The notes beneath the pieces are model-generated. The model ran no database searches and was not told the origin of the DNA. It saw only the letters and a program-made list of their open reading frames with translations. A stretch of 52,232 nucleotides of DNA from Candidatus Pacearchaeota archaeon CG_4_10_14_0_2_um_filter_35_33 (lineage in GTDB: Archaea > Nanobdellota > Nanobdellia > Pacearchaeales > GW2011-AR1): the NCBI GenBank assembly GCA_002792635.1, contig PFOR01000009.1:1-52232 (forward strand), written 5' to 3'. The position numbers were made by a program, and so were the translations under genes. Each line of letters starts with the position of its first letter. The stretch's first letter is position 1. Shown piece after piece: positions 4,268-35,362 of this stretch.

Positions 4268-4750
4268 TTACCTCCTCTTGCCAATCTCCTTTTGAAATTT
4301 ATCTCTTATTTCATTAACCTTTTTCTCGTTTAATTTTATAATAACAGATTTGCATTTAACTAAAAATTCAGGGGCTTTCTGAATCATTTTATTATATTGT
4401 TCATCTGGAACAGTTCTATCGATATAATATTGAGAATCAACTCTGGCTTTTAATGAATCCTCTGCAAAATCCAATTCACTTTCTTCAAAATATTCTTCGA
4501 GGAATCTTTTTGCAAATTCAATAGTGCAGGAATGAATTTCGCATTTTACACCTAATTTCATCAAGACAGCGTATAATGAGAAATAGATTGTGTAGTATGC
4601 TGTTGAGATTTTCCAATCTTTGATTATGTTTACTCTCATTGATTCAAGAGCTTCTTCAGCTTTCTTAATATAAGCGCTTGCTAAATCTGAATTCGATTCA
4701 ATTAAGCCTAATCCTTCTTTTTTTCCTGCACACCATTTTATTTTATCCAT
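4268..4750 (-). CDS. HEPN domain protein (UPF0332-like), partner of the MNT
   Basis: AYYTIYFSLYAVL..GVKCEIHSCTI..RVDSQY; overlaps the upstream MNT gene. Confidence 0.8.
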   Translation of the reverse strand: MDKIKWCAGKKEGLGLIESNSDLASAYIKKAEEALESMRVNIIKDWKISTAYYTIYFSLYAVLMKLGVKCEIHSCTIEFAKRFLEEYFEESELDFAEDSLKARVDSQYYIDRTVPDEQYNKMIQKAPEFLVKCKSVIIKLNEKKVNEIRDKFQKEIGKRR

Positions 4751-5333
4751 TTTTGAATACACTCTGTATAAATTGCTCTACATTTAGAAAAACCACATGA
4801 TTTTTTAAAACTTCTTTTAGAAGAATATCTTTTGTTAGATTCTTCTTAAATGTTTTCAGAGGATAACATTTAATGCTTATTTCTATACCCAAATTTTTCG
4901 AGATTTTTTTTATTTCGTCATTGTTATAACTTCCTGCAATAAAAATATCCAAATCAGAACCTTCTTTTTCTAATCCCTTAACATAACTTCCAAAAATTAT
5001 GCCGATTCCTTTAATATTGGGAGTGATTTTTTCTATTATTTCTTTAATCAAAAGTTTTTTTTCTAAAAATGCAATCGCTTTATATTGTTCTACGAAAGCA
5101 AGATACCGTTTAGTGAACTCGCTTGGATTTAATTTAAATGTTTTAATCTTGCCTTTAGTTTTTGATTCTATCGCTCCCTTATCTTCCAAATCCTCAAGAA
5201 TAAGCTGTGATGTTCTCGGACTAATTTTCAGTAATTTTTCAACTTCTCGAATATAATATTCTCTGTTAAAATCGTTCGTAAATAGAGATAATACCTGCAA
5301 GGTATTTTCTGTAAATTTTATCTTTTTATACAT
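4743..5333 (-). CDS. wHTH + minimal nucleotidyltransferase (MNT) antitoxin
   Basis: N-terminal HTH; IFGSYVKG...SDLDIF motif. Confidence 0.85.
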   Translation of the reverse strand: MYKKIKFTENTLQVLSLFTNDFNREYYIREVEKLLKISPRTSQLILEDLEDKGAIESKTKGKIKTFKLNPSEFTKRYLAFVEQYKAIAFLEKKLLIKEIIEKITPNIKGIGIIFGSYVKGLEKEGSDLDIFIAGSYNNDEIKKISKNLGIEISIKCYPLKTFKKNLTKDILLKEVLKNHVVFLNVEQFIQSVFKNG

Positions 5334-5733: not shown

Positions 5734-7041
5734 CTAGATAAACTTCCACTTCTTCAAAATCTTTTCCAGGTTCAAATCTTTCTCTTCTAAAGTATAAGTT
5801 ACATTGACAATCGGCTTTTTTGTCTTAATTATTGCAGATAATTTTATAGGCGTTCCGGAAACTACAACATCACAAGGAGTATTATTAATCGTGGTCTGCA
5901 ATTCCTGGATTTGTTTCTTTCCATAACCCATTGCCGGCAAAACATCAGTAACATGTCCATACTTTTCGTAAGTTTTCTTTATACTTCCAACAGCATACCT
6001 CTTAGGACTCACAATCTTAGCACCAGCATTCTTTGCTGCAATATATCCCGCCCCAAACTTCATACCTCCATGAGTTAATGTAGGCCCATCTTCAACTATC
6101 AATGCTCTCTTTCCCTTCAAATGATCTTTATCTATTTTTAATCTCGACGCAGCTTTAATTACACTAGCATTCGGATTAAATTTCTTAATATTTTCCTCAA
6201 TTTCCTCAATCCCTCCTTTAGGTGCCGTCTCAACTTTGTTAATAATTATTACATCAGCCATTCTGAAATTAGCTTCTCCCGGATGATAAATCATTTCATG
6301 TCCAGCCCTATGAGGGTCAGTAACAACAATATGTAAATCGGGTTTATAGAAAGGCAAATCATTATTTCCTCCATCCCACAAAATAATATCTGCTTCCTTC
6401 TCTGCCTCTTTTAATATCTTTCCATAGTCGACACCCGCATATATTACCATCCCTTTCCTTATCCACGGCTCATATTCTTCCCTTTCTTCTATAGTGCATT
6501 CATATTTGTCAAAATCCTCATATGTTTCAAATCTCTGCACCTCTTGTTTTATCAAATTCCCATATGGCATTGGATGCCTAATTGCAACAAATTTCTTGCC
6601 ATGTTTCTTTAACACTTCCGCGATTTTTCTTGTTGTTTGGCTTTTTCCGCATCCCGTCCTGACAGCACAAACACTGATAACTTTTTTTCTGCTCTTAAGC
6701 ATAGTCTCCTGACCAAGCAAAACAAAGTCAGCCCCATTTGCAATTGCGATGGAAGCTTCGTGCATAACAGCTTCATGGCTTAAATCAGAATGCGAGAAAA
6801 CAACATCATCAATCTTATATTTTTTAATCAGCACAGGCATATCAGATTCAGGAAAAATGGGAATATCTTTCTTATACAACTTCCCCGCAAATTCCTTCGG
6901 AAAATTTCTTTTATCAATTCCAGGTATTTGCTCAGCAGTAAAACATTTCACATCATAATCCTTATTGTCTTTATACTTCACCAAAAAATTGTGAAAATCC
7001 CTCCCGCCTGCACCTGAAATAACTACATTTCTTTTTTTCAT
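5734..7041 (-). CDS. arcE: cyclic 2,3-diphosphoglycerate synthetase-like P-loop protein, probable arginine synthetase (ArcE-like)
   Basis: GAGGRDFHNF, AVRTGCGKSQT, IRHPMPYG, CTIEEREEYE, WDGGNND, EDGPTLTHGGM; clustered with carbamoyltransferase and carbamate kinase genes. Confidence 0.75.
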   Translation of the reverse strand: MKKRNVVISGAGGRDFHNFLVKYKDNKDYDVKCFTAEQIPGIDKRNFPKEFAGKLYKKDIPIFPESDMPVLIKKYKIDDVVFSHSDLSHEAVMHEASIAIANGADFVLLGQETMLKSRKKVISVCAVRTGCGKSQTTRKIAEVLKKHGKKFVAIRHPMPYGNLIKQEVQRFETYEDFDKYECTIEEREEYEPWIRKGMVIYAGVDYGKILKEAEKEADIILWDGGNNDLPFYKPDLHIVVTDPHRAGHEMIYHPGEANFRMADVIIINKVETAPKGGIEEIEENIKKFNPNASVIKAASRLKIDKDHLKGKRALIVEDGPTLTHGGMKFGAGYIAAKNAGAKIVSPKRYAVGSIKKTYEKYGHVTDVLPAMGYGKKQIQELQTTINNTPCDVVVSGTPIKLSAIIKTKKPIVNVTYTLEEKDLNLEKILKKWKFI

Positions 7042-7237
7042 ATTTATTTAAGGAAAATTGTTTTTAAAAAACTATCCCAAATAGTTAAAAATACTTGGTT
7101 AAGTTATTTTCGTACAAAACTATTTGGGAAAATGCTTCTTCTCCACGATACTCAACATCTGCCCATCTTCTATCTCCTTCATGTGAAATTATCTGTTGTT
7201 TTCATTAAAGTCAACTCTTACCCCCTTATTTCTGGCT

Positions 7238-8503
7238 TTAACTTCCATCCCCACACCCCATGAAGTTACATATTTTTCCGGAATGCTTGAACCCTTTCTT
7301 TCTAATTTCTTTCATAGATTTTTCTAAAACACTTAAACCGACATCAATTTCTTTCTTATTGACAACATAAGGGGGAATCAATCTTATCCCTTTTTCTCCC
7401 GCTCCCAAAACTAATAATCCTCTTTTCGCAGATTCAATAACTAAATTATCTCTTTCTCTGGAATCCTGTAAGTCAAATGCGGTCATCAATCCCCTCCCCC
7501 TAATATTACCAACTTCAAGCTCATTCAACCTCTTCATCATATATTTCCCGTTCTTTCTGTTTTTCTGCAAGAGTTTTTCTTTCTTTATTATATCAATTGT
7601 TTTCATACCAAGCATCATATCAACGACACTTCCACCGCCCCATGTCGATGATAATGCTCCCGGCTCATCAGGAAACATATTGGAAACAGTAGCTCCTACC
7701 TGAAGAGCTTTAGCAGCACTAAACACGTCAGGCCTTATTCCATAATGCTCAAAGCTCCACCATTTTCCCGTTCTACCCATTCCAGCCTGCACCTCATCAG
7801 CAATATAAGGAATCTTATTATTCTTGCATATAGAATAAACACCCCTTACCATTTTTCTTTCAGGAACCCTATATCCTCCTTCTCCCTGTAAATGCTCTAA
7901 AATCACAAGCCCAACGCTCTGGCTTCCGTGTTTCTTTATTATATCTTTTAATTTATCTCCCGCACTTTCATCAAAAGGAAGTTCTTTATTCGGTTCTAAC
8001 ATATAACCCTTTCTATGGATTGGTTTGGAATGATGCAAACTTAATGCCCCAAGAGTTCTTCCATGAAAAGCCCCCTGAAAACTTATTGTAAATTTCTTTT
8101 CCTTTCTTTTCCGCATTGCAATCTTTATCGCATTTTCGACAGCTTCCGCCCCGCTGTTTGACAAGAAGGCCTGTTTCATCCCTTTAGATATAGAAAGAAC
8201 TTTGTCAATCATTTTTAAATGCTCTCTAACGGTAAAGTCCTGCCCGGCATATTTCACGGGAAAACTTTTCAAGGATTTTACAATTTTCAATAGTTCTGGA
8301 TGATTGTAACCAAGAGGATTTGTCGCTATTTGAGATGCAAAATCAAGAAATCTGTTACCATCAATATCTTCACAATAAACACCCCGCCCCTTGCCAGAAA
8401 ACACAAGAGGATGCGGAACACCATAACCTCCGTTTTTCTTCTTCAACTCTACAAGAAACCTCGCAGATTTTGGTCCCGGTATTTTTGTTTTTATATTTAT
8501 CAT
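7238..8503 (-). CDS. class III PLP aminotransferase (ornithine/4-aminobutyrate type)
   Basis: NSGAEAVENAIK, FHGRTLG, QGEGGY, DEVQAGMGRTG, SSTWGG. Confidence 0.9.
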   Translation of the reverse strand: MINIKTKIPGPKSARFLVELKKKNGGYGVPHPLVFSGKGRGVYCEDIDGNRFLDFASQIATNPLGYNHPELLKIVKSLKSFPVKYAGQDFTVREHLKMIDKVLSISKGMKQAFLSNSGAEAVENAIKIAMRKRKEKKFTISFQGAFHGRTLGALSLHHSKPIHRKGYMLEPNKELPFDESAGDKLKDIIKKHGSQSVGLVILEHLQGEGGYRVPERKMVRGVYSICKNNKIPYIADEVQAGMGRTGKWWSFEHYGIRPDVFSAAKALQVGATVSNMFPDEPGALSSTWGGGSVVDMMLGMKTIDIIKKEKLLQKNRKNGKYMMKRLNELEVGNIRGRGLMTAFDLQDSRERDNLVIESAKRGLLVLGAGEKGIRLIPPYVVNKKEIDVGLSVLEKSMKEIRKKGFKHSGKICNFMGCGDGS

Positions 8504-8545
8504 CTCTTTTTATTTCCAAAAATTTATTATGCGTCGGATGGTTAA

Positions 8546-8731
8546 TTATGCCTGAAACAAATAAAAGTATTTAAATCCTTGTTCATCCCAATGTATAAAG
8601 CATTCTTTAATAATTAGATTTTGAGAATTATCTCCAACAGAATGAGATTTAACCTTTTTCAGCAATCTAAAGGACACTTCTTTATCGTGATTTACAACCG
8701 CTTCTTTTCCAATCCACTTTAATGTAGGCAT
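8546..8731 (-). pseudogene. type III R-M Mod methyltransferase, N-terminal fragment
   Basis: MPTLKWIGKEAVVNHDKEVSFRLL...NLII, then diverges. Confidence 0.7.
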
Positions 8732-8732
8732 C

Positions 8733-9884
8733 TTATACAATCACCACATCTAAAATCTCGTGAGCAACAAAAAGTTTATTTCTTTCTTTTTCACTTGTAG
8801 GTTTTAGGATATTTAGTTTAATTAAATTTTGAACAGCTTTTTTTGCAGTAGGATAGGTGATATTTAATTTTTTGGCAACTTGGTTTATCCGTATAAAAGG
8901 ATTCATAAAAAGCAAATCCACCAAACTCAATAAATTTATTGCTTGTTTATGGTTTTTCGTTTTCTCTTGGTACTTCTCACTAAGTTTTTGAATTTTTATC
9001 GTTCTCTCCAATGCATCTTCAGATTGAACTTTTATTGCTTCTAAAAAGAACTTAATCCATTCTTCAAACTTGCCTGTTTTGTTTGCATTTAACAAAGTTT
9101 CATAATACTCTCTCCTATGTTTTTCAAAATAATCACTTGCATATAGAAGAGGTTTTGAAATTTTATTTTTCTTACAAAGATAAAGAGTAATTAATGACCT
9201 TCCGATCCTCCCATTTCCATCACAAAAAGGATGTATTGTTTCAAATTGATAATGCATTAAAGCACATTTAATCAATAAAGGCATTTCGTCGTACTTATTT
9301 AGATATTCTATTAACCCATTAACTAATTTTTCAACTTCTTCTTGAGGTGGGGGAACGAAAGTTACATCTTGAATTTTTGTATTTTTTGGACCAATCCAAT
9401 TTTGGACAGGTCTAAAATTTCCAGGTAAAAGCTCGTTACCTCGAACGCCCTTCATTAAAAGTTTATGCATCTCTTTTATTAGTTCTGTGTTTATTGGCTC
9501 CTTTTCAATTTTCTTTAAAGCATAATTCATAGATTTAAGATAATTTCCAACTTCTGTTGCTTCTATGTCTTCTTTTTCAATACCCTTGGCTTCTGTTAAA
9601 AAGTAGTCTGATAGAGAAATTCTTGTCCCTTCAATTCTCGAACTTGAAAGAGCTTCTTTTTTTAGATAAGGAATAACTAATAAATCTGGGTTTGGTAAAA
9701 GCAATCCTGCTCCAGAAAGTTTGCTTAGAGTGCTATCTGCTTTAGAAAGTGATAAAACCAATTGAGGAGTATAGTCAAAATTTGGAGGAAGTTTTTCTGG
9801 AATAAAGGATAAGTATTCCCCATGTTCTTCAGTTTCTTTCTTAACTAACTTCCCAAAAGCTCCTTTAAATTCAGAAGTTTCCAT
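8733..9884 (-). CDS. Fic family protein (with C-terminal wHTH)
   Basis: HPFCDGNGRIGR Fic motif; EALSSSRIEGT. Confidence 0.93.
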   Translation of the reverse strand: METSEFKGAFGKLVKKETEEHGEYLSFIPEKLPPNFDYTPQLVLSLSKADSTLSKLSGAGLLLPNPDLLVIPYLKKEALSSSRIEGTRISLSDYFLTEAKGIEKEDIEATEVGNYLKSMNYALKKIEKEPINTELIKEMHKLLMKGVRGNELLPGNFRPVQNWIGPKNTKIQDVTFVPPPQEEVEKLVNGLIEYLNKYDEMPLLIKCALMHYQFETIHPFCDGNGRIGRSLITLYLCKKNKISKPLLYASDYFEKHRREYYETLLNANKTGKFEEWIKFFLEAIKVQSEDALERTIKIQKLSEKYQEKTKNHKQAINLLSLVDLLFMNPFIRINQVAKKLNITYPTAKKAVQNLIKLNILKPTSEKERNKLFVAHEILDVVIV

Positions 9885-9990
9885 GATAATTATGATTGAA
9901 AAGACTATTTAAAACTATGTTTTCTTATTAAACAAAATAGGCAAATCGTTTAATAACGATTTTTCTTATTAAATGCTAATTTAAATACAT

Positions 9991-10179
9991 TTAATATAAT
10001 TGAATAAAAAGCCATTTATCATGCCTGCATAAATCTTGTGCTTCTCCACCAACAACTTTTCCCAACCACTTTTTTATTTTAGGAGAATTAACTTTATCAT
10101 TATAAACCCAATTTTCATTTCCAGTGTTATAGGGCGGGTCTATGTAAATACATTTTACTTTTCCAATATAATAAGGCAT
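9991..10179 (-). pseudogene. type III Mod methyltransferase internal fragment (DPPY motif)
   Basis: PYYIGKVKCIYIDPPYNTGNENWVYND...RHDKWL. Confidence 0.8.
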
Positions 10180-10374
10180 AAAATAATAGAAATTGTTGTT
10201 GTATTTTTGTCTTGTGAGCCGCCGCCTTTTTTGCTTCTTTTTTCTTAAAAAGAAGATGGGGGAGTTCTGTTGTTTTCCAAAAAATCAGGCAACCGAAGAA
10301 TATTTAAAGATTGAAATTGTAATAATACTAATATGTTCCCCGGTATGGCTTCGGCAATGCCGGGCACTTATATT

Positions 10375-10560
10375 TTATTCTTTTATCTCATTGATTATAT
10401 TATCTACACAAAACGATTTATCACAAGTATGTTTTAAATAGTTTGAAGAAGTTGATTTGAAATAAGCATTAATTACCTTCTTCCCTAATTTTTGTGCTTT
10501 CTGAATTGCGGGCACAAAATCTTCATCTCCAGAAACAATTATTGCAGTATCGTAAAGATT
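10375..10560 (-). pseudogene. C-terminal fragment of a NYN (LabA/DUF88) PIN-like nuclease
   Basis: Manual translation NLYDTAIIVSGDEDFVPAIQKAQKLGKKVINAYF...LKHTCD; no start codon. Confidence 0.75.
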
Positions 10561-10711
10561 TTGTATTTACTTTATTCTTAATCTCAAAGTAAATAGTTTT
10601 TGTTCCAAACAAAATTTTTGAATTCTCTTTTATTACTTTCTCAAATTCTTCTTCTTTTTTAAATTCAGTTTCTACAAACTTTTCTCCATCCATAAAAATT
10701 GCTGATTTCAT
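10523..10711 (-). pseudogene. N-terminal fragment of a hypothetical protein joined out of frame to the NYN fragment
   Basis: 62-aa ORF; ATGA overlap with the upstream gene; runs into the NYN remnant. Confidence 0.5.
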
Positions 10712-11319
10712 CTCTTTTGGTAAGGCGTTCCTCCATTAAATTTTAGTATACTCTCAACTAATTCAAACTCTTCTGAATCTGTTTGTAACTGATGAATACT
10801 ATAATCATATTTTGGAAATTCTTCTGTTAATTTTTTTAACACATTCAGGAACGTATCAAAGTAACTAATTCTTTTTTTATTTGATGTAAACTGAATAGGT
10901 AAATGGTTTGTGACTTTTACAATCTTTTTAGACAAATCACTAAGGTTATTATTATCTTTAGTTTTTATTTTAGAGTTTAGATGAATATCTTTATTAGTAT
11001 GATGATTCCTATCAAAATCTAAAAATAGTTGGATAGTTTCCTTTGAATCTATAATAAAAAACTCCATCAATAATAATCTTTCATCTTTATTTCTTTTAAC
11101 ATCTTGTGTTATTCCTTGGTATTGAATAGAAAACCACCTTTTATTTTCCTTGAATAATAACACTTCAAAACTATTTTTATAAGAATCGTAAGGAGATATA
11201 TAAATTATTTTTCCATTTTCTTTTATAGGCATTACAATTTCATTTAACAAGTTATCCCTTATTTCATTAGGATGATATTTATTTCTTAAACTTATAATAA
11301 ACTCCCCATTAGCTTCCAT
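10708..11319 (-). CDS. hypothetical protein
   Basis: 203-aa ORF in operon-like spacing; no family recognised. Confidence 0.65.
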   Translation of the reverse strand: MEANGEFIISLRNKYHPNEIRDNLLNEIVMPIKENGKIIYISPYDSYKNSFEVLLFKENKRWFSIQYQGITQDVKRNKDERLLLMEFFIIDSKETIQLFLDFDRNHHTNKDIHLNSKIKTKDNNNLSDLSKKIVKVTNHLPIQFTSNKKRISYFDTFLNVLKKLTEEFPKYDYSIHQLQTDSEEFELVESILKFNGGTPYQKR

Positions 11320-11321
11320 TT

Positions 11322-12095
11322 TTAAACATCCATCTTTTCTTCTGCTACTTCCTTAATCTTGTTTTGGATTCTCTCTTTAAACTCCTTTCCAAACTCATCA
11401 AATATTTCTAAAACTTCTTCATATGTCCCTTTTCCGCCTAAAAGTTCCCAGAATTTTTCAGCAACATAAAGCTCTTTTTGTTCATCCAAATATCCCTGCA
11501 TTGTAAATCTGCTATACGGTTCTGGATGATATGGATTATAAGGAATTGCTAAAATTGTATTAACTTTCTTTTTTCTGAGTGCTACCTATTCTAGCAATTT
11601 TTGTTTTGATTTGACGAAAACATCTATATTGGGCTTTGCCGTTTTTATCTCAATATAATATTCTTCATCTCCTTTTCTTAAAAATAAATCAGCCCTGATT
11701 TTAATTCTTCTTCCGCCGTTATTCTTGCATTTTAGAATTTCTTTAATCTCTTGTTCTTTATTGGCTGTTCTTGTTCCATTCTTTATTTCCTGAAGAATTT
11801 GAGAAATTACAGAGTTTTCTTCATTTGTAATTTCTCCCTCAACATCATAACCTGTTCTTATTTTGTCATAATTAGTTGAAGCAACAATTTTAGAGATTTT
11901 TTCATAAACAGACATCCCCAATGTTGTGGCTAAAGAATGTATGAAAGAGTAAGAAGCAACTTTTTCGGCATCCTGCATCAATTTAACCAAAAAGGGCATA
12001 GCAGTTGTTTCTCTTGCATACTTAGACAGCTTGTCATCTAACTTTAATTTTAACAGATTCTTTATTTCTTTAATTTGGTTTTTATTCAATGTCAT
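11322..12095 (-). pseudogene. TdeIII/MjaII-like type II restriction endonuclease, internal TAG at 11586-11588
   Basis: SFIHSLATTLGMSVYE, ADLFL..YYIEIKTAKPN, KLLE*VAL..AIPYNPYHPEPY..FWELLGGKGTYEE in one frame. Confidence 0.8.
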
Positions 12096-12185
12096 ATCAT
12101 AGGAAGATTGTCTTTTATTTATAAATACTCTGATTTCTGCGTAGCAGACCATTTATCCGAAGGATTAGGAACCCCCTAATAAATA

Positions 12186-12326
12186 GAAAAATTTTGGAGA
12201 GTGAACCGAACTATTTAATCATTGTTAGACAGAATTTTCAGCAGAAAATTTGTTTCCGTTTTCGTTAGTCGGATAAAAGAAGTTTTTCTCTATTGTTGAA
12301 AACAAAAGCTATTTGTTCGAAGGACT
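12186..12326 (-). repeat. cassette-leader repeat, copy B
   Basis: Reverse-complement homologue of 2269-2405. Confidence 0.8.
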
Positions 12327-12407
12327 GCGGGCAATCTCTCAAAATTATATGGTCGTCGCCCCCCCCCCAGAAAAATTAAAATTTTGACGAAGCCAAGCAA
12401 CAATGTA

Positions 12408-13865
12408 CTACTCTATCCCCTGTGCCTTCTGTAGCTTCCCGGAATAATCAAAATAAACTGCTTTTGTTTCCGAGAATTCATTAATTCCTTCAATACCTGC
12501 CTCTCTTGTTCCGTTTCCCGTACCTTTAACTCCCCCAAACGGAAGATGAACTTCAGCCCCGATTGTTGATGAATTAATATATGTAATTCCAGTCTCACCT
12601 TTATTTATAACATCAAAGGCCGTTTTCATATCCCTTGTATAAACTGCGTTTGATAGTCCATAATCAACATCATTTGCAATTTTGGTTGCTTCATCCATAT
12701 TTTTAGCTTCTATTATAGAAACAATAGGTCCGAATATTTCCTCCTGACATATTTTCATTTCACTCTTGCAATTAGTAAAAATTGTAGGTTCAAAGAAATA
12801 GCCCTTGCCTTTTATTTTCCTCGCCTTTCCTCCATGAAGAAGTCTGGATCCCTCTTCTTTACCAATAGAAACATAACTTGCCGACTTCTTAACAGCAGTT
12901 TCGTTAATTAAAGGCCCAATATCTGCCGTCAATCCAGAACCTAGTTTCAATTTCCTTACTCTTTTAACTAACATATCTTCAAATTTCTTTTTAATATTCT
13001 TATGTACCACGACTCTTGAAGATGCTGTACATCTCTGTCCTGTTGTTCCAAAAGCACCCCATATCACGCCCTCAACTGCCAATTCCAAATCGACGTCTTT
13101 ATCCACAATAATCACATTCTTTCCGCCTAACTCCAGACCAACTTTCTTAATTCCGGCTTTTTTCAGTATCAATTCCCCTATTTTCTTGCTTCCCGTAAAA
13201 GAGATAGCCCGAACATCAGGATTTGTAATCATTTCATCACCCACATCCTTTCCAGAACCTGTTACAAGATTAAAGACGCCCTTGGGCAATCCTGATTTCT
13301 CAATTATTTTTGCCAGCTCTATCGCGCAAAGGGGTGTATCCGATGAGGGCTTAAAGACGATTGTATTCCCACAGATTAATGCAGGAGCAATTTTCCAGGC
13401 AGGTATCGCAATAGGAAAATTCCATGGAGTTATTAGGCAACAGACGCCAACAGGATTTCTAACAGTCATGGCAAACTTATCTGGAAGTTCTGATTTTGTT
13501 GTATATCCGAAAAGTCTTCTTCCCTCTCCAGCCATATACTCAAAAATGTCAATGGCCTCCTGAACATCCCCTCTTGTTTCTTTCAAAACTTTTCCCATCT
13601 CTTTAACCTCTATCTTAGCAAGTCTTTCCTTTTCTTTAATCAAACAATCTCTTATTTTCCACAAATATTTCGCTCTTTCAGGAGCAGGCATATCTCTCCA
13701 TACAGGAAAGGCCTTTTTTGCGGACTTAATGGCTTTCTTAACATCAATTTTATCTGACTTCTGAAATTTCCCCACCCCTTGCTCTGTAGCAGGATTCAGG
13801 CTGTCAAAAGTCTTTTTAGAATCAGAAGACAACCATTTTCCGTTAATATAATTTTTATACACCAT
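12408..13865 (-). CDS. NAD(P)-dependent aldehyde dehydrogenase
   Basis: ITPWNFP, FTGS, LELGGKN, GQRCTA, EEIFGP. Confidence 0.95.
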   Translation of the reverse strand: MVYKNYINGKWLSSDSKKTFDSLNPATEQGVGKFQKSDKIDVKKAIKSAKKAFPVWRDMPAPERAKYLWKIRDCLIKEKERLAKIEVKEMGKVLKETRGDVQEAIDIFEYMAGEGRRLFGYTTKSELPDKFAMTVRNPVGVCCLITPWNFPIAIPAWKIAPALICGNTIVFKPSSDTPLCAIELAKIIEKSGLPKGVFNLVTGSGKDVGDEMITNPDVRAISFTGSKKIGELILKKAGIKKVGLELGGKNVIIVDKDVDLELAVEGVIWGAFGTTGQRCTASSRVVVHKNIKKKFEDMLVKRVRKLKLGSGLTADIGPLINETAVKKSASYVSIGKEEGSRLLHGGKARKIKGKGYFFEPTIFTNCKSEMKICQEEIFGPIVSIIEAKNMDEATKIANDVDYGLSNAVYTRDMKTAFDVINKGETGITYINSSTIGAEVHLPFGGVKGTGNGTREAGIEGINEFSETKAVYFDYSGKLQKAQGIE

Positions 13866-13906
13866 CTTTTTCCTAAAAAGATGCTTTAATTTATAAATTT
13901 TATGAA

Positions 13907-14752
13907 TTATAAGCTTCCAATTACTTCAGCAATTGCCCTAGAAACTAAATGTCCTGTATGCTCTTGAATGTCATGCTTTGGACTCACCTCAACAATATCC
14001 ATCCCTATCAAGCCAAGTCCCGTAATCTTTTTTATCAGATACAAAAATTCCTCTGATGACAGCCCTCCCGGAACAGGCGTATCAACGCCTGGAGCAAATG
14101 CGGGATCCACAACATCCATATCAATCGACAAATAAACCTTGCATTTTCCAACTCTTCTCTTTATTTTTTGAAATACCTTTTTTATTCCTATTTCTTGAAT
14201 ATCAAAGGGAGTGATGGTCATCATATGTTTTGACTTCAGGTTTTCAATCTCTTCTCTTTCGGGGGCTCTTGTTCCAACTTCAATGCTTTTCTTTTCATTA
14301 AAATTCTCCAGTTTTCCTATATCACAAATAACACTCCCATAATAACTATCCTCCGCGCACCTTATGTCTGGATGAGCATCAAAATACACCAATGATATAT
14401 TTTTCTTACAGTCATTAACTCCTTTCATTACTTCTGTTGTAACACTATGGTCCCCTCCAATAACGATGGGTATCTTTTCAGATTTTAATATTCCCAAGAT
14501 TTGTCTTCTTAAGGTGTTCTTCTTTAAATTTCCTAAATCATGTACTTTCTTTCTTATCACACCAGATGAAGATTCAGTTTTTCTACCTTTTTTCTTATCA
14601 AATACCTCTTCCTGATTTGATATATTTCTTATATAATCTGGTGCTTTAGAGACCTCATTTTTCCTTTTGCTTTTGCTTCCTGAAGAGTCAGGCACTCCAA
14701 GTAAGATTATCTCTGCATCTTTTATTTTTGAGTTGTGTAAAAAGAATTTCAT
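13907..14752 (-). CDS. ureohydrolase (agmatinase/arginase family)
   Basis: GGDHS, DAHPD and SIDMDVVDPAFAPG metal-binding motifs. Confidence 0.88.
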   Translation of the reverse strand: MKFFLHNSKIKDAEIILLGVPDSSGSKSKRKNEVSKAPDYIRNISNQEEVFDKKKGRKTESSSGVIRKKVHDLGNLKKNTLRRQILGILKSEKIPIVIGGDHSVTTEVMKGVNDCKKNISLVYFDAHPDIRCAEDSYYGSVICDIGKLENFNEKKSIEVGTRAPEREEIENLKSKHMMTITPFDIQEIGIKKVFQKIKRRVGKCKVYLSIDMDVVDPAFAPGVDTPVPGGLSSEEFLYLIKKITGLGLIGMDIVEVSPKHDIQEHTGHLVSRAIAEVIGSL

Positions 14753-15654
14753 GTTTTTACTCCCAAACATTTCAACAAAACCGCCTTTTCGCTCCACATC
14801 CTGTTCTCTGCCTGCTGATAAACTACACTTCTTTTAGAATCAATCACGTCATCTGTAACTTCATGCCCTCTTTTTGCAGGAAGACAATGCATAAATATTG
14901 CTTTTTTATTAATATTAAATATCTTACCATTAACTTGATATGGCTTTAGCATCTTGATTCTTTTTTTCTCCTGCGATTTAGGAACCTGGTATGACATCCA
15001 TGTATCAGTATAAATCACATCAGCATCCTTAACAGCTTTTTTAGGGTCTTTAATATATTTGTATTTACCTTTCGCAATCACTTTTGGATTTGGCAAGTAC
15101 TCTTTCTTATCTGGAGATGAAATAATGATTTCTGTTCCAGTTCTATTTCCTTCCAATATCAAAGAGTGAACAACATTATTATTCGCATCCCCAAGAAAAG
15201 CAATTTTCTTTTTTTGGAATCCGCCAAGCTTCTCTTTTATAGTTAAAAAATCTCCCAAAACCTGGCACGGATGATAATAATTTGTTAAACCATTTATTAC
15301 AGGGACATCAGCATACTTAGCAATCTCTTCAATCTGCTTATGCTCATACAACCTTGCCATAATCACATCACTATATCTAGCAATAACTTTTGAAAAATCC
15401 TTGATAGATTCTTTCTTTCCCAATGTGCTATGTGATAAATCATAAAATATTGCATGCCCTCCTAACTGATACATCGCAATATCAAACGACAAATACGTTC
15501 TTAAGGAAGGTTTGGCAAACAACATTAATAATGTCTTACCATTAAGAACATTAACAGTTTTCCTATTTCTCTTCAACTTCTCAGCCCTTATTATAACATC
15601 ACTTATATCACTCTTTTTCCAATCTTCCAAGGATAAAAGGTCTCTTTTTTTCAT
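14749..15654 (-). CDS. argF: ornithine carbamoyltransferase family protein
   Basis: KPSLRT, HPCQ, HCLP, QAENR. Confidence 0.88.
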   Translation of the reverse strand: MKKRDLLSLEDWKKSDISDVIIRAEKLKRNRKTVNVLNGKTLLMLFAKPSLRTYLSFDIAMYQLGGHAIFYDLSHSTLGKKESIKDFSKVIARYSDVIMARLYEHKQIEEIAKYADVPVINGLTNYYHPCQVLGDFLTIKEKLGGFQKKKIAFLGDANNNVVHSLILEGNRTGTEIIISSPDKKEYLPNPKVIAKGKYKYIKDPKKAVKDADVIYTDTWMSYQVPKSQEKKRIKMLKPYQVNGKIFNINKKAIFMHCLPAKRGHEVTDDVIDSKRSVVYQQAENRMWSEKAVLLKCLGVKT

Positions 15655-16535
15655 TTCACTATCTCCGTACCTTTACTAATATCAAAACCACTTATTATAA
15701 CTTTCTTTCCACCTTTTTCCAAAAACCTGATAGCAGATTCAACTTTAGGCCCCATACTTCCCGCAGGAAATTGCTCTTCCTTGTAATATTTTTTTATTTC
15801 CTTTAACTTTATCTTCCCCAGATGACGTTGTCCTTTCTTATTGTAATTGTAATAAACCCCATTAGTATCCGTAATCATAATTAATTGGTCTGCTTTTATG
15901 GATGTAGCGAGGCATTGTGAAGCCCTGTCTTTATCTATCACAGCTTCAACACCATCTAATCCTCTTGCCATTTTCACAACAGGAATCCCTCCGCCTCCAG
16001 CAGCAATTACAATTGCATTGTCATCCAAAATATCATCGATTATCTTTGTTTCAATAACTTTTATAGGTTTAGGGCTCGGAACAACCCTTCTATAACCACG
16101 ATTAGAATCTTTCTTAATAATAAATTTCTTTCCTAGTTTCTTAGCTTCTCTTGCATTATAAAATGACCCAACGAATTTTGTTGGATTTCGGAAAGCAGAA
16201 TCTTTCTTATCCACAAGAACCTGTGTAAGAACTGTAACAACTTCTTTCTTCTCTTTAAACAAATTATGTAAATTTTGTTGTATTAAATAGCCAATCTGCC
16301 CTTCTGTCTCAGCATCTATCACATCCAAAGGCATCTTTATTCCAGCTTTCTCCTGTTGTAATAATAAATATCCAGCCTGAGGCCCATTCCCATGTGTAAT
16401 CACAACTTTATTCTTTTTAATAATAGGAAATAACTTTTTCATGGCCCTTTCAGTATTCATTTCCTGAGTTTCAATGCTAGGCCTCTCGCCCTTTTTTAAC
16501 AAGGCATTCCCTCCAAGTGCTATTACAACTTTCAT
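15651..16535 (-). CDS. arcC: carbamate kinase
   Basis: ALGGNAL, THGNGPQ, RRVVPSPKP, EAVIDKD, GSMGPKV. Confidence 0.95.
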   Translation of the reverse strand: MKVVIALGGNALLKKGERPSIETQEMNTERAMKKLFPIIKKNKVVITHGNGPQAGYLLLQQEKAGIKMPLDVIDAETEGQIGYLIQQNLHNLFKEKKEVVTVLTQVLVDKKDSAFRNPTKFVGSFYNAREAKKLGKKFIIKKDSNRGYRRVVPSPKPIKVIETKIIDDILDDNAIVIAAGGGGIPVVKMARGLDGVEAVIDKDRASQCLATSIKADQLIMITDTNGVYYNYNKKGQRHLGKIKLKEIKKYYKEEQFPAGSMGPKVESAIRFLEKGGKKVIISGFDISKGTEIVK

Positions 16536-17680
16536 ATCACTTTCTCCATTCTTTTCAATGCTTTTTCAATCAATTCATATTTAGTTGCAAAACTCATCCT
16601 AACATAACCTTCTCCGTATTTCCCGAACTCTGTCCCAGGAATAACAGCTACTTTTGCCTTCTTCATCAACATATCAGAAAACTTCACACTGTTTTTTCCA
16701 TTAATGTTAGCAAACGCGTAAAAAGCACCTTCAGGCATCACAGTTTTTAATCCCATGTCATTTAATCTTGGAACAATCATATCTCTTCTTCTCTTATATT
16801 CTTTTACCATGCAATTAATATATTTATCAGGTAGGGAAAGTGCTTTTATTCCCATTAACTGCGAAATAGATGGAGGAGCAAGAGTCATGTAAAAGTTTGC
16901 CTGATTTATTTCATTAAGTAATTTGTCTCCCGTTGTTAAATACCCAAGTCTGAAACCACACATCGCATACTCTTTAGAAAATGTTTGAAATGTAATGACG
17001 TGATTATCTAATCCGTTTAAACTTCCAATAGATATATGCTTCTTATTGTAAGTTATTTTCTCATATGCCTCATCCGCCAATATTATCAAATCTTTATCAA
17101 CTGCAATATCGGCAATCTCCTCTAGTATCTTCTTCCCTAAAACATTTCCGGTTGGATTGCTTGGTGTATTAATTATTATGGCTCTTGTTTTTTTACCAAT
17201 CAATTTTTTTAATCTATCTGGATTTATATTCCAGGAATCCTCCTCATCCAATTTCAACAATTTTGGAACCCCATTTACCAACTTAATAATAGGGATATAA
17301 CTAATAAAACCAGGACTAGGAACAATTACCTCTTCTTTTTTGTCTACCAAAGTCAAAAGAGTAGCAAAAATTGCTTCCTCACTTCCACAAGAAACCATAA
17401 TATTGTCTTCGTTGGTTTTAATCTTATTTTCTTTTCTTAACTTTTGAGCAATTTTTTTTCTTAATTCCAACATCCCTTGTGGCTCAGAATAGCGTGTTCC
17501 TTTTCCTTGCTTCAATAATTTAGAACCATAATTCAATATCCTTTTATCCGGCAAAAAGTCTGGCTCTCCAGGCCCTAAACTTATTATCTTATTATCTTTA
17601 TCAATCGTTTTTTTAATTCTTGGAAATTCAAGTTGTGGGAGATTTAAATCCCTATCTGATAAATGTTTCAATAAGTCCAT
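16532..17680 (-). CDS. class I/II PLP aminotransferase (aspartate aminotransferase-like)
   Basis: GEPDF, NTPSNPTG, DEAYE, FSKEYAMCGFRLG; GAGGTG SD before ATG17680. Confidence 0.92.
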   Translation of the reverse strand: MDLLKHLSDRDLNLPQLEFPRIKKTIDKDNKIISLGPGEPDFLPDKRILNYGSKLLKQGKGTRYSEPQGMLELRKKIAQKLRKENKIKTNEDNIMVSCGSEEAIFATLLTLVDKKEEVIVPSPGFISYIPIIKLVNGVPKLLKLDEEDSWNINPDRLKKLIGKKTRAIIINTPSNPTGNVLGKKILEEIADIAVDKDLIILADEAYEKITYNKKHISIGSLNGLDNHVITFQTFSKEYAMCGFRLGYLTTGDKLLNEINQANFYMTLAPPSISQLMGIKALSLPDKYINCMVKEYKRRRDMIVPRLNDMGLKTVMPEGAFYAFANINGKNSVKFSDMLMKKAKVAVIPGTEFGKYGEGYVRMSFATKYELIEKALKRMEKVI

Positions 17681-17870
17681 GTTCACCTCAATCAAAACAA
17701 CAAATTAAACTTTTTAAATCATTCCAGAATAACAAACCTGTCATCTTTTAGTTTTATCAGATAATGCAATAAAACCTAGAACAATAAACACAATAACAAC
17801 AATAATCGTCCAAGTTGTTTTGGAATTCCTTGCAATTCCAGGGAAAAATCTTTTGGGTTATATAAATTTT

Positions 17871-18756: not shown

Positions 18757-19581
18757 TTACCTTGGCCTGGCCTTGTTCAACGGTTTAAACCCTGTCCAGT
18801 TATTCTCAAACATTTGTTTCATAGAAGAAGCTAAAAAATTACTTGATAACCAAACAGCCGTATCATAGCTTGGATGCACACTCTTGTCATCCAATAGCAT
18901 TAGCATCATTTCCTTGTTATCTATCAATGCAAATCTTCCATTGTTTTTCCCATCAACACTTCTAACCTCTGCAAATTTAGAAAGTTCTTTTGCAACTTTA
19001 TAATTATCCTTATTTATAGGCGCAGCAACCCTTACCTTAACACCCCTCTTTTTTGCCCTCTCAAACTCAGGCAATAAAGATTCCATCTTTCTATTAAGTC
19101 CTTCAGCGCTTGTAACAATAACAGCCTCTTTGTTAGCGTTCTTCAACATCATGTCCAGATGATTGTACATGTTTTGTCTGCCTTTCAAACTTCCAGACAA
19201 ATCAGATGGTTCAACATACTTAACACCATTACTATATAAACCAGACAACTCTTCCAAAACCTCATCACCTTTCAGTTTATCAAGTCTCTTAGATTTTTCA
19301 TTCGCTTCAACAACCAAATTTTTCTTAACCCTCTCCACAACCTCTTCAGGTTTCAATGCAATAAACTTAATTGGCTTTCCAATCTTCATCACAATAAAGC
19401 CCTTCTTCTCCAAAGATTCCAAGATATCATACGTCCTTGAACGAGGAACATCTGAAATGTTGCTCAACTCTCCAGCTGTAGAAACACCCCTGGATAATAA
19501 AGAAGTCCAAACTTTTACCTCATACAAATTAAGATCAAATATTTTTCTCAACCTACTCAAAAATTCTTCGCTTACTATCAT
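18757..19581 (-). CDS. TrmB family transcriptional regulator
   Basis: LNLYEVKVW..LL..G.STAGELS..SDVPRSRTYDILESLEKKG. Confidence 0.9.
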   Translation of the reverse strand: MIVSEEFLSRLRKIFDLNLYEVKVWTSLLSRGVSTAGELSNISDVPRSRTYDILESLEKKGFIVMKIGKPIKFIALKPEEVVERVKKNLVVEANEKSKRLDKLKGDEVLEELSGLYSNGVKYVEPSDLSGSLKGRQNMYNHLDMMLKNANKEAVIVTSAEGLNRKMESLLPEFERAKKRGVKVRVAAPINKDNYKVAKELSKFAEVRSVDGKNNGRFALIDNKEMMLMLLDDKSVHPSYDTAVWLSSNFLASSMKQMFENNWTGFKPLNKARPR

Positions 19582-32845: not shown

Positions 32846-34300
32846 TTAAGCTTTAGTTTTCAACTCATTGATATCACTTAATATTTCATTTTCTAACTTC
32901 TCAATTCTTTCCATAATTTGTTCTGGTGGATCATACTTAACATCTTGATATTCAATTTCTTTATACTTTGATATGCTTAAATCCCAATCATCATTTTTAA
33001 TTTCTTCAATTGGAACAAAAAAATGCTTTTTCTTTCTATCTTCGTTATCTTCATCTTTTCTTTTTTCAAAGCTTCCTATAATATCAGGTATATCTCCTTG
33101 TCCGTCATCTATTTGTGTTCTTTTATCATCTAAACTAAAACCATCACTTTTCATGTCATAAAACCAGACTCTTTGAGTTGGCTCTCCTTTAGTAAAGAAT
33201 AAAACAGCAGTAGGAACTCCTGCATATGGTTTGAACACTCCAGAAGGCATTTTTATAACTGCGTCTAATCTGCATTTTTCTAAAAGAATCTGCCTAATTG
33301 ATTTATGGGCTTTTGAATTTCCAAATAAAACACCATCCGGAACAATAACCGCACATCTACCACCACTTGCTAAAGAATTATACATTAATTCCAAAAATAA
33401 TAACTCTGTTTTTCTAGTTTTTATTAATAAATTATCACTCATCTCAGACTCATCAATACTTCCCTTAAATGGAGGATTTGCTAAGATTAAGTCATAAGTA
33501 TTTTCTTCATTATATCTTTTTGAGAGTGTGTTTAGTTGTTGAATATTTGGCCTAGTTATTCCGTGCATCATTAAATTCATTAAAGAGATTCTTGTAAGTG
33601 TTTGATCAATATCATAGCCATATAAAGATTCTTCATCTAAGATTTTCTTTTTCTGAGCTGTTAAAGTGCTAACTCCATCTTTTTTATTGGAGTTTAAGAT
33701 ATACTCATAAGCATTAATTAGAAATCCTGCAGTTCCACATGCTGGATCTAAAATCCTATCCCCATATTCTGGTTTTGCTAAATTAACCATCATTTTAATA
33801 ATGTGTCTTGGAGTTCTGAATTGTCCGTTTTTTCCTGCTGTTTGTAATTCACTTAAAAGATATTCATACATATCTCCTTGAGTATCTTGATTTTGCTCTT
33901 TAATGTGCATGTCATTTATTATTTTCACAGCCTCCATTAAAAGCGAGGCAGTTGGTATCTCAAAATTAGCATTTTTCATATATTTAGCATAAAATGAATC
34001 TCCGTTATCTAAATTTCTTAAGGAAGGAAATACTTTATCTCTAACATGATCCATTATTTTATCAGCAGAGTAATTGCTCCATTCAGACCATCTGCAATCT
34101 TTATGGTTTTCAAAAATAGATTTAAACTTTTCTCCTGTTAATCTTGCCTCTTGTTCTTTTCTAACATTTTCATCCTCTAACCTTTTCATAAAAATTAGGA
34201 AAGATATTTGTTCAATTGCTTGTAAGGGGTTAGAGATTCCACCAGACCAAAACTTATCCCAAAGCTTCTGTATTTGTGATTTTAGTTGTGGGTGTAGCAT
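32846..34300 (-). CDS. hsdM: type I R-M N6-adenine methyltransferase
   Basis: GQFRTPRHI, DPACGTAGFL, ANPPF, VPDGVLFG. Confidence 0.95.
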   Translation of the reverse strand: MLHPQLKSQIQKLWDKFWSGGISNPLQAIEQISFLIFMKRLEDENVRKEQEARLTGEKFKSIFENHKDCRWSEWSNYSADKIMDHVRDKVFPSLRNLDNGDSFYAKYMKNANFEIPTASLLMEAVKIINDMHIKEQNQDTQGDMYEYLLSELQTAGKNGQFRTPRHIIKMMVNLAKPEYGDRILDPACGTAGFLINAYEYILNSNKKDGVSTLTAQKKKILDEESLYGYDIDQTLTRISLMNLMMHGITRPNIQQLNTLSKRYNEENTYDLILANPPFKGSIDESEMSDNLLIKTRKTELLFLELMYNSLASGGRCAVIVPDGVLFGNSKAHKSIRQILLEKCRLDAVIKMPSGVFKPYAGVPTAVLFFTKGEPTQRVWFYDMKSDGFSLDDKRTQIDDGQGDIPDIIGSFEKRKDEDNEDRKKKHFFVPIEEIKNDDWDLSISKYKEIEYQDVKYDPPEQIMERIEKLENEILSDINELKTKA

Positions 34301-34302
34301 TT

Positions 34303-34797
34303 TTACATTTCCTTAAATTTTTTTCTTAGGTTATTTATTTCTTGGATTGTCAGTTTTCCAAAGTATGCCCTTAATTCTACATTAAACCTTTGTGCAACTT
34401 TTAATCGCTCATCGCATTTTTCTTTATGTATTGGCTCAGCATCATTCATAGGTATATAATATTGATTGTCTATCCGGTCTTTTTTGAATTCAGAGAAAAT
34501 TAGATATAGATTTTCTAAATCAAACAATTCTTTTATCAAAAGCACTGCTCCAGAATGATTTTCACATTTGATTCCACATTTAAAAAATAGTGACTGAACA
34601 GTGTTGTAGATTGAGTAATAAGCTTCTGAAACTGCGTTCTCATATATTCCTGCACCATATGCAAGTTTTGCTACTTGCATGCATTTTTCACTTTTTATCA
34701 AATATGATTTAGATATTTCTTCAGAAGGGTCTACAAGCTCTAATCTTTCTTCTTGTTTTAGTTTATTCAAAAAATTTGATTTTATCATAATACTCAT
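34303..34797 (-). CDS. HEPN domain protein (UPF0332-like)
   Basis: AYYSIY..GIKCENHSG..RIDNQYY; paralogue of 4268-4750. Confidence 0.8.
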   Translation of the reverse strand: MSIMIKSNFLNKLKQEERLELVDPSEEISKSYLIKSEKCMQVAKLAYGAGIYENAVSEAYYSIYNTVQSLFFKCGIKCENHSGAVLLIKELFDLENLYLIFSEFKKDRIDNQYYIPMNDAEPIHKEKCDERLKVAQRFNVELRAYFGKLTIQEINNLRKKFKEM

Positions 34798-35362
34798 CTG
34801 CCCCCCTTATTATTACATGATTTTTTATTATTTCTTTTATTAATAAATCATTTTCATTGAATTTTCCAATTTTTATACTTATCAAATCATAGATTTTTTG
34901 TATTTCTTCTTTGACTTTCTGATTTGTTGTTTCGATGTAAACATCAATATCGCTGTCTTTTTTTGAATTTCCTTTTGCATAGCTTCCAAAAAGAATTATT
35001 AAATTGCAAGTGCATTTTCTGATAATATCTCGAAAAATAGGTTCAAGCTCTGGATATTTTAACAGTATCTTTGTAAGTTTGTAGTTTTCAGCATTTAAGA
35101 CAAATGATTTTGAGATTAAATTTTTTTTAATAAAATAAATATGATTTTTTCCAACAACCCTATAATCCAATACATTTATTTTTAGTAGTTCTTCAAGTAT
35201 TGACTGCACTCTTGTTAAAGAGGTCTTTAGTTCTTTTGCCAGTTCTCTTTGATGCATCTCTTTTTTTAAGAGGAGTAACAGTACTTCATACATATAATTG
35301 ACTTTTATTTGTGTCATATGACTTTTTAATAAGTCAGTAGTATTTAAGTCTTTTGCTTTCAT
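34763..35362 (-). CDS. wHTH + MNT nucleotidyltransferase
   Basis: LFGSYAKG..DSDIDVY. Confidence 0.85.
   Translation of the reverse strand: MKAKDLNTTDLLKSHMTQIKVNYMYEVLLLLLKKEMHQRELAKELKTSLTRVQSILEELLKINVLDYRVVGKNHIYFIKKNLISKSFVLNAENYKLTKILLKYPELEPIFRDIIRKCTCNLIILFGSYAKGNSKKDSDIDVYIETTNQKVKEEIQKIYDLISIKIGKFNENDLLIKEIIKNHVIIRGADEYYDKIKFFE

Follow-up and report, generated by a model that had tools for sequence, protein, structure and literature searches.

Whether arginine can yield ATP in a DPANN archaeon by a route without arginine deiminase is the question raised by a group of genes on contig PFOR01000009.1 of Candidatus Pacearchaeota archaeon CG_4_10_14_0_2_um_filter_35_33. The stretch analysed here (the window) comprises 52,232 nucleotides. 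Together with genes for carbamate kinase (CK, arcC) and ornithine carbamoyltransferase (OTC, arcB), it contains a gene for a 435-aa protein resembling the arginine synthetase ArcE. The analysis makes it likely that this window of Pacearchaeota/Woesearchaeota type encodes the arginine synthetase pathway, in which ornithine would end as glutamate. As far as can be judged from the genes, this archaeon probably draws energy from arginine in earnest.

ArcE was described only in 2024 (PMC11032458). In the passages of that paper used here, the family is reported throughout Thermococcales including Pyrococcus, annotated as hypothetical protein or putative GTPase and with low similarity to cyclic 2,3-diphosphoglycerate synthetase (cDPGS); arcE is located beside arcB/arcC in some genomes and the authors describe the family as widespread. 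For the family comparison, Pyrococcus furiosus P0114 was used as stand-in for the Thermococcus kodakarensis enzyme TK2200. The window protein aligned with P0114 from residue 2 to 432 at 65% identity (281/435). P0114 is annotated as 'GTPase', and other relatives are named either 'GTPase' or 'cyclic 2,3-diphosphoglycerate synthase'. No model for the ArcE family was found in Pfam-A and NCBIfam, which accounts for these inconsistent names; the sole Pfam match of the window protein was a weak one to CobW/HypB/UreG.

In the homologue search, all of the scored candidates (8000/8000) were significant. Among the matches listed, the closest named ones came from Pacearchaeota (73%, 71% and 69% identity) and Nanoarchaeota (69%), and homologues with 57-79% identity were present in 80 genomes of many phyla. 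The corresponding 80 loci, kept of 163 relatives, include nine from DPANN archaea and none from T. kodakarensis. In an alignment of 24 sequences (A1), all 117 invariant columns were retained in the window protein, including the P-loop G130-x-G132-K133-S134. A maximum-likelihood tree with midpoint root was calculated from 81 rows, consisting of 79 of the 80 loci (L080 was dropped for a stop inside the match), the window protein and P0114. The window protein was sister to that of L001, a Woesearchaeota metagenome-assembled genome (MAG; 79% identity, SH-aLRT 99), within a nine-row DPANN clade (SH-aLRT 99) made of six Woesearchaeota, one Nanoarchaeota, one 'Parvarchaeum' and the window; P0114 was located within the Thermococcales clade (SH-aLRT 100). 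The AlphaFold2 (AF2) model of the protein reached a pLDDT of 90.8, and sequence and profile searches of the PDB did not retrieve any ArcE structure. Judged by its sequence, the 435-aa protein is orthologous to the Thermococcales ArcE family, where the earlier note on this DNA had already placed it; the full-length identity to the P. furiosus member and the association with arcB and arcC bear this out. Longer proteins with an ArcE domain were also observed among the 50%-identity representatives, namely P0371 (766 aa), P0374 (655 aa), P0385 (651 aa) and P0455 (806 aa). They are fused forms; in P0371, for example, query residues 7-419 align to residues 330-745.

The ORF listing and the Pfam and NCBIfam scans recovered all seven genes named in the earlier note as intact open reading frames (ORFs) on the minus strand, with matches to the expected families. 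In order of transcription they encode a class I aminotransferase, CK, OTC, a ureohydrolase, an aldehyde dehydrogenase (ALDH), a class III aminotransferase and the 435-aa protein (Table 1). The first five genes, from 17695 to 12408, form a tight operon with a 4-nt overlap at each of the junctions class I aminotransferase/CK, CK/OTC and OTC/ureohydrolase. The class III aminotransferase gene and arcE form a second block (8503-5734), which an island of 3.9 kb keeps apart from the operon. The proposal of one co-oriented cluster holds for presence and orientation of the genes, but not for its continuity, and the proposed end at 17680 has to be moved to 17695, where the class I aminotransferase ORF ends. 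The contig has a GC content of 0.34, the catabolic genes of 0.33-0.38. An isoleucyl-tRNA synthetase (IleRS) is encoded on this contig 2 kb upstream. Its named organisms among the matches listed (n=10) were five Pacearchaeota, two Nanoarchaeota, one Nanoarchaeia and two 'archaeon', with a best Pacearchaeota identity of 69%. By these matches the contig is placed in Pacearchaeota/Nanoarchaeota, and the term 'DPANN-like' used earlier is therefore justified, in line with the clade of its ArcE.

The scores of the arcC and arcB products exceeded the cutoffs of their models (Table 1), and the putrescine carbamoyltransferase model TIGR04384 gave 256 on the arcB product, below its cutoff of 500. The CK and OTC of the window share 60-67% and 64-66% identity, respectively, with those encoded beside arcE in L001 and L003. 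For the class I aminotransferase, the best solved relatives were an aromatic (1dju) and an aspartate aminotransferase (1gd9), both at about 1e-90, and orthologues with 52-63% identity occur near arcC-arcE-arcB in L001, L002, L003, L013, L024 and L025.

ArcE, ArcB and ArcC of the window belong to the same three enzyme families as the pathway of T. kodakarensis (ArcE TK2200, ArcB TK0871, ArcC TK2158; PMC11032458, PMC13260591). No arcA was found nearby in the window, and the expected chemistry would likewise give 2 ATP per arginine. In the proposed sequence, ArcE would convert arginine, ADP and inorganic phosphate (Pi) to citrulline, ATP and NH3, a reaction for which a Keq of 10.1 and a standard free-energy change of -6.8 kJ/mol at 80 C are given in PMC11032458. 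OTC would then cleave citrulline with Pi to ornithine and carbamoyl phosphate, from which CK would form the second ATP and carbamate from ADP. Ornithine would be converted to glutamate-5-semialdehyde by the class III aminotransferase, and the semialdehyde would be oxidised to glutamate by the ALDH. The class I aminotransferase would finally exchange amino groups, linking glutamate/2-oxoglutarate with other keto acids. Orthology to characterised enzymes supports the first three steps; conserved synteny and family membership point to the last three and to their presumed substrates, while the catabolic direction and the yield of 2 ATP per arginine are expected from the biochemistry of T. kodakarensis.

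The classical arginine deiminase pathway (arcA-arcB-arcC, often with arcD) also includes OTC and CK and gains ATP from carbamoyl phosphate. The window differs from it by the absence of arcA and of an arginine/ornithine antiporter, and its first step would be catalysed by an ATP-forming P-loop enzyme. The absence of arginine deiminase from the window, as noted earlier, was confirmed by a Pfam scan of 51 ORFs (almost every non-overlapping ORF of at least 100 aa; 0/51), and no arginine deiminase or arginase-family model was matched by any of the 149 ORFs found in the nine DPANN loci. In the part of a DPANN survey cited here, ArcA is reported only in 28.6% of Micrarchaeota (PMC8407392).

The neighbourhood of arcE in relatives was analysed by tblastn searches of the 80 loci with the window proteins as queries (E<=1e-10, query coverage of at least 50%), linkage being defined as a location within 3 kb of arcE. 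CK and carbamoyltransferase were both linked to arcE in 15/80 loci, that is in 7/9 of DPANN, 5/10 of Bacillota and 3/3 of a group with unassigned phylum (titled Aminicenantes). Neither CK nor OTC was found within this distance in the 27 Thermoplasmatota loci (0/27) or in the 13 loci grouped with Methanobacteriota (0/13). The latter include eight Thermococcales, for which the result fits the dispersed TK2200, TK0871 and TK2158; by the locus tags in PMC13260591 the three genes are dispersed in T. kodakarensis, whereas they are clustered in the window and its DPANN relatives. The gene order arcC-arcE-arcB was present in seven DPANN loci (L001, L002, L003, L013, L024, L025 and L062), and in four of them (L013, L024, L025 and L062) it is followed by ALDH and class III aminotransferase genes. 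Since the same genes recur around the arcE orthologue in related genomes, their clustering is not due to chance. Unlike the T. kodakarensis system, the DPANN cluster is extended by genes for the ALDH and for class III and class I aminotransferases.

The clusters of Woesearchaeota MAGs resemble that of the window most closely in their orthologues (ArcE 62-79%, CK 51-67%, OTC 43-66%, ALDH 65-68% and class I aminotransferase 52-63% identity), and their ArcE falls in the same clade. However, arcE is located between arcC and arcB in these clusters, while in the window it closes the gene group, behind the class III aminotransferase gene; the proximity of aminotransferase and arcE in L004 is similar to that in the window. 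In contrast to these relatives, the window carries an agmatinase-type gene in the operon after arcB (0/80 loci) and its cluster is split by an island, while L013, L024 and L025 keep the ALDH and aminotransferase genes adjacent.

A Pfam scan of the 149 ORFs across the nine DPANN loci revealed further neighbours. An M32 carboxypeptidase gene lies between arcC and arcE in L024 (8514-9998) and L025 (2614-4101), and a run of peptidase genes (M42, two M29 and M24) follows the aminotransferase gene in L024 (15103-20462) and L025 (10576-14676), with an additional M16 in L024. This layout physically links peptide breakdown to the arginine pathway. L013 additionally encodes glutamate dehydrogenase, the subunits of an ADP-forming acyl-CoA synthetase, an M42 peptidase and a four-subunit 2-oxoacid:ferredoxin oxidoreductase. 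In L062 (5909-12562), the stretch after arcC-arcE-arcB-ALDH carries the second class III aminotransferase gene of the locus, another ALDH gene, one for saccharopine dehydrogenase and finally the third ALDH and third aminotransferase genes; this extension may represent a module of lysine catabolism attached to that for arginine. The setting of the DPANN loci is that of peptide and amino-acid fermentation of Thermococcales type.

A further type of arcE neighbourhood, this one bacterial, was observed in L035, L042, L043, L048, L050 and L073 (Atribacterota, Bacillota and one unplaced bacterium). There another class III aminotransferase gene, whose product has 29-31% identity to that of the window, is located just upstream of arcE, and these loci have no CK or OTC gene nearby.

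The fate of ornithine depends on the ALDH and the class III aminotransferase. Orthologues of the ALDH (65-68%) were detected after arcB in L013, L024, L025 and L062; over all loci they occur in 5/9 of DPANN versus 0/71 of the others. Orthologues of the class III aminotransferase follow ALDH/arcB in L024, L025 and L062 (54-56%) and one is found near arcE in L004 (66%). Every NCBIfam match of this enzyme was below cutoff, the best being to an acetylornithine aminotransferase family (308 versus 552). Its best solved relatives were 2eo5 and, in second place, 7vno, presumably PH1423 of P. horikoshii. PH1423 is given as ornithine delta-aminotransferase in PMC9986279. Gene context and the similarity to 7vno make ornithine delta-aminotransferase the probable function.

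The alternative that survives best retains the same enzymes and assigns them another purpose, either the supply of carbamoyl phosphate for pyrimidines or the reverse sequence from CK over OTC to ArcE, by which arginine would be synthesised from ornithine, CO2 and NH3. ArcE is reported in PMC11032458 to work in both directions and to sustain arginine synthesis in vivo. According to the sections of PMC13260591 cited here, the enzyme of T. kodakarensis also supplies carbamoyl phosphate, and pyrimidine prototrophy of this organism requires arcE and arcB, not arcC. Most DPANN archaea would benefit from another way to complete arginine synthesis, as ArgG/ArgH are absent outside Altiarchaeota and Micrarchaeota in the cited part of the DPANN survey (PMC8407392). 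In the present loci, however, it is arcC, dispensable for carbamoyl phosphate supply in T. kodakarensis, that is coupled to arcB by the overlap and that adjoins arcE in 7/9 DPANN loci. The accompanying ALDH would in practice operate from semialdehyde to acid, which fits the breakdown of ornithine and not its use in synthesis. The neighbours in relatives (peptidases, glutamate dehydrogenase, 2-oxoacid:ferredoxin oxidoreductase and ADP-forming acyl-CoA synthetase) are catabolic, and no gene for aspartate carbamoyltransferase or arginine biosynthesis was found in the window or among the 149 DPANN ORFs. As the main role here, either of these purposes is therefore considered unlikely.

More improbable still is that the ALDH and its partner, the class III aminotransferase, act with the agmatinase-like ureohydrolase to degrade agmatine or putrescine, via 4-aminobutanal and 4-aminobutyrate (GABA) to succinate, and are only loosely tied to the ArcE pathway. 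The ureohydrolase is indeed of agmatinase type and its gene directly precedes that of the ALDH. The ALDH also scored well on models for aminobutyraldehyde and succinate-semialdehyde dehydrogenases, and the aminotransferase on those for GABA and putrescine aminotransferases, all of them below cutoff. Against this stands the arrangement in L013, L024, L025 and L062, where ALDH and aminotransferase genes follow arcB without any ureohydrolase, a homologue of which was detected by tblastn in 0/80 loci; the pair therefore travels with the production of ornithine and not with agmatinase. In addition, neither arginine decarboxylase nor agmatine deiminase was detected in the scans of the window, and the similarity to 7vno, presumably PH1423, favours ornithine as substrate.

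The ureohydrolase itself was listed as an ORF at 13907-14797. An in-frame ATG at 14752 overlaps the stop codon of the OTC gene as ATGA; it is therefore most likely that translation starts at 14752 and is coupled to arcB. The product scored 152.9 on the agmatinase model TIGR01230, just below the cutoff of 174.3, and 198.6 on the Pfam Arginase family (cutoff 22). It contains the motifs GGDHS, DAHPD and SIDMDVVDP, of which GGDHS, DAHPD and DMDVVDP presumably provide the metal ligands. Its nearest relatives come from DPANN, Asgard and Nitrosopumilus and are named agmatinase, arginase family or N1-aminopropylagmatine ureohydrolase, and the best solved relative is the agmatinase 3pzl (1.4e-29). SpeB is reported in 75.8% of DPANN genomes in the cited part of PMC8407392. 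The gene thus appears to encode the usual agmatinase of the polyamine branch, recruited into the arginine operon. Most likely it converts agmatine to putrescine, as an arginine-derived side branch outside the energy pathway. An ArcE homologue (P0019, 71%) and a ureohydrolase homologue (P0125, 67%) were observed with the same sources, the longest contig being 14031 nt for each, and there may be a second genome with an agmatinase gene near arcE.

The relationship of the 435-aa protein to cDPGS was examined at the levels of sequence and fold. With phmmer against PDB sequences, the best matches were cDPG synthetases (9sxb, E 4.7e-7; 8oru and 8ork, E 1.5e-3), in alignments confined to residues 198-327, with 32.5 bits (residues 198-320) and 21 bits. 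A 24-member profile reached 41.2 bits (E 8.2e-10) with the solved cDPGS; the sequence match spans about 115-125 residues, and full-length homology to characterised cDPGS was not found. With Foldseek, the best match of the AF2 model was cDPGS of M. fervidus (8oru; E 5.6e-18, 18% identity, TM 0.45-0.47). A search of 1.84 billion representatives yielded 3112 matches with E<=1e-3 and 501 with E<=1e-30, and the best 150 of the 3112 were all ArcE-like. Superfamily, fold and P-loop are thus shared with M. fervidus cDPGS (8ork/8oru) and 9sxb, while sequence and gene context differ from the M. fervidus enzyme. From sequence and modelled fold, the protein is assigned to the superfamily of cDPGS and to a different family; a grouping with bona fide cDPG synthetases, which the earlier note had named as the outcome that would speak against ArcE, was not obtained by contrasts of score and identity (65% to the ArcE family versus a weak partial cDPGS match). 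That it is a cDPGS making a compatible solute, with the arc genes as coincidental neighbours, is highly improbable, because the name 'cyclic 2,3-diphosphoglycerate synthase', borne by many close homologues in NCBI-derived records, is backed by no Pfam or NCBIfam model, the best fold match to M. fervidus cDPGS is accompanied by marginal and partial similarity, and linkage to arcC/arcB was seen in 15/80 loci.

The arginine synthetase pathway with ornithine oxidation therefore remains the preferred reading, and the sequence evidence speaks for the interpretation given in the earlier note. Besides the reversibility of ArcE and its role in carbamoyl phosphate supply, several points weigh against it. 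The arginine synthetase activity of the DPANN homologues is predicted from sequence alone, and the characterised TK2200 was represented by its P. furiosus stand-in only. The ALDH did not reach any NCBIfam cutoff (best 2-oxoglutarate-semialdehyde dehydrogenase, 509 versus 770), and models for 2-oxoglutarate-semialdehyde, betaine-aldehyde and succinate-semialdehyde dehydrogenases scored higher than those for glutamate-semialdehyde dehydrogenase. The class III aminotransferase fell below the cutoffs of the ornithine aminotransferase models TIGR01885 (188.8 versus 378.4) and NF003145 (175.2 versus 656). The absence of arcA covers 52 kb of the genome, and no arginine/ornithine transporter was found in the window by the Pfam scans. 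Finally, arcE is located 7.7 kb from arcC/arcB, behind a foreign island and with an AT-rich upstream region of its own, so that its co-expression with the operon cannot be taken for granted.

The 196-nt spacer upstream of arcE contains a perfect 11-nt inverted repeat (CCCAAATAGTT / AACTATTTGGG, at 7076-7086 and 7118-7128, 31 nt apart). The repeat might serve as an operator or as the hairpin that terminates the aminotransferase gene before it. A scan for bacterial-type promoters and terminators, ill-suited to archaea, gave no excess over shuffled sequences (48 versus 53.8 and 7 versus 6.9, respectively).

The island itself lies outside the pathway. As ALDH and class III aminotransferase genes adjoin directly in L013, L024 and L025, it was inserted into a pre-existing cluster. 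It resembles a restriction-modification element that has decayed while its Fic gene survived (Table 1). Both halves of the TdeIII pseudogene match the Pfam profile (positions 2-169 and 180-242). Recoding of the TAG codon between them was rejected, TAG being an ordinary stop here that also ends arcE, the ALDH gene and the IleRS gene. Repeats flanking the island were limited to short, imperfect two-copy matches at chance level.

Table 1. Genes and other features of the arginine locus and its surroundings in the window.
Feature	Position	Strand	Evidence or remark
arcE orthologue (arginine synthetase family), 435 aa, intact	5734-7041	-	65% identity to P. furiosus P0114
Class III (omega) aminotransferase, probable ornithine delta-aminotransferase	7238-8503	-	PF00202, 2.8e-84
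Low-GC island, outside pathway	8504-12407	-	GC 0.295; 3.9 kb between ALDH and class III aminotransferase
Fic gene, SoFic-like, intact	8733-9884	-	Pfam
N6/N4 DNA methylase fragment	9991-10284	-	island
NYN fragment	10375-10566	-	island
Hypothetical ORF	10708-11319	-	island
TdeIII restriction pseudogene	11322-12152	-	in-frame TAG 11586-11588
ALDH, probable glutamate-5-semialdehyde (or other omega-semialdehyde) dehydrogenase	12408-13865	-	PF00171, 1.7e-173, full length
SpeB-type ureohydrolase (agmatinase-like)	13907-14752	-	PF00491, 1.9e-58; 281 aa from ATG 14752
arcB, ornithine carbamoyltransferase	14749-15654	-	TIGR00658, 333.6 bits (cutoff 280.85)
arcC, carbamate kinase	15651-16535	-	TIGR00746, 361.1 bits (cutoff 358.25)
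Class I aminotransferase (Asp/aromatic type), first gene of the operon	16532-17695	-	PF00155, 3.8e-64
Conserved hypothetical, 155 aa	17871-18338	-	upstream of operon; no match in Pfam and NCBIfam
TrmB-family transcription regulator	18757-19581	-	PF01978, 7.6e-18; PF11495, 1.3e-05; upstream of cluster

Of the genes upstream of the operon, the one for the 155-aa hypothetical protein has a homologue (43%) at the same position in L001 (6482-6955), just upstream of the class I aminotransferase gene, and its atlas neighbours were Nanobdellota hypotheticals only. It may be a cluster-associated factor.

Elsewhere in the window, two toxin-antitoxin-like pairs of HEPN and nucleotidyltransferase genes were detected (4268-5333 and 34303-35362), the second inside a type I restriction-modification operon (HsdM 32846-34300, HsdS 35359-36528, HsdR 40209-42953). 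An ORF for the phosphotransferase system (PTS) phosphocarrier HPr (51034-51363; PF00381, E 1.1e-12), unexpected in this lineage, adjoins a peroxiredoxin-like gene. A tRNA at 448-573 (126 nt, Rfam 44.9 bits), not reported by ARAGORN, is probably an intron-containing archaeal tRNA.

The ArcE pathway as such is known; its presence in DPANN archaea has apparently not been discussed. The cluster is conserved and extended in the DPANN relatives and locally rearranged in the window. The main texts of PMC11032458 and PMC13260591 do not mention DPANN, Woesearchaeota, Pacearchaeota or Nanoarchaeota, and the supplementary distribution figures of PMC11032458 may already list DPANN genomes. No paper linking arginine synthetase with DPANN was found by full-text search, and a search for Woesearchaeota/Pacearchaeota arginine with carbamate kinase or OTC gave only an unrelated paper on lateral gene transfer in ciliates. 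With a family described so recently and without a Pfam-A or NCBIfam model, surveys based on arcA score these lineages as lacking the arginine pathway, as in the cited part of PMC8407392.

The supply of ATP in DPANN archaea is poorly understood, as many of them are without complete central metabolism. Several DPANN genomes carry ArcE, ArcB and ArcC intact and together with a module for ornithine oxidation, which offers a concrete and testable energy metabolism. A wider proposal is made tentatively and with some doubt: arcC-arcE-arcB and the ornithine-to-glutamate module, in some genomes joined to peptidases, 2-oxoacid:ferredoxin oxidoreductase and ADP-forming acyl-CoA synthetase, might represent a conserved supercluster for arginine fermentation in DPANN archaea of Pacearchaeota/Woesearchaeota type and a principal energy source of these ultra-small cells, overlooked through the names 'GTPase' and 'cDPG synthase'. 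If true, it would provide 2 ATP per arginine by substrate-level phosphorylation, and more if glutamate were oxidised further. A bacterial parallel would be the acquired arginine deiminase system, which benefits ultra-small Saccharibacteria as reported in PMC8764695. The finding suggests that arginine or peptides are what the cells draw from their hosts or surroundings, and these compounds may be possible supplements for enrichment and cultivation.

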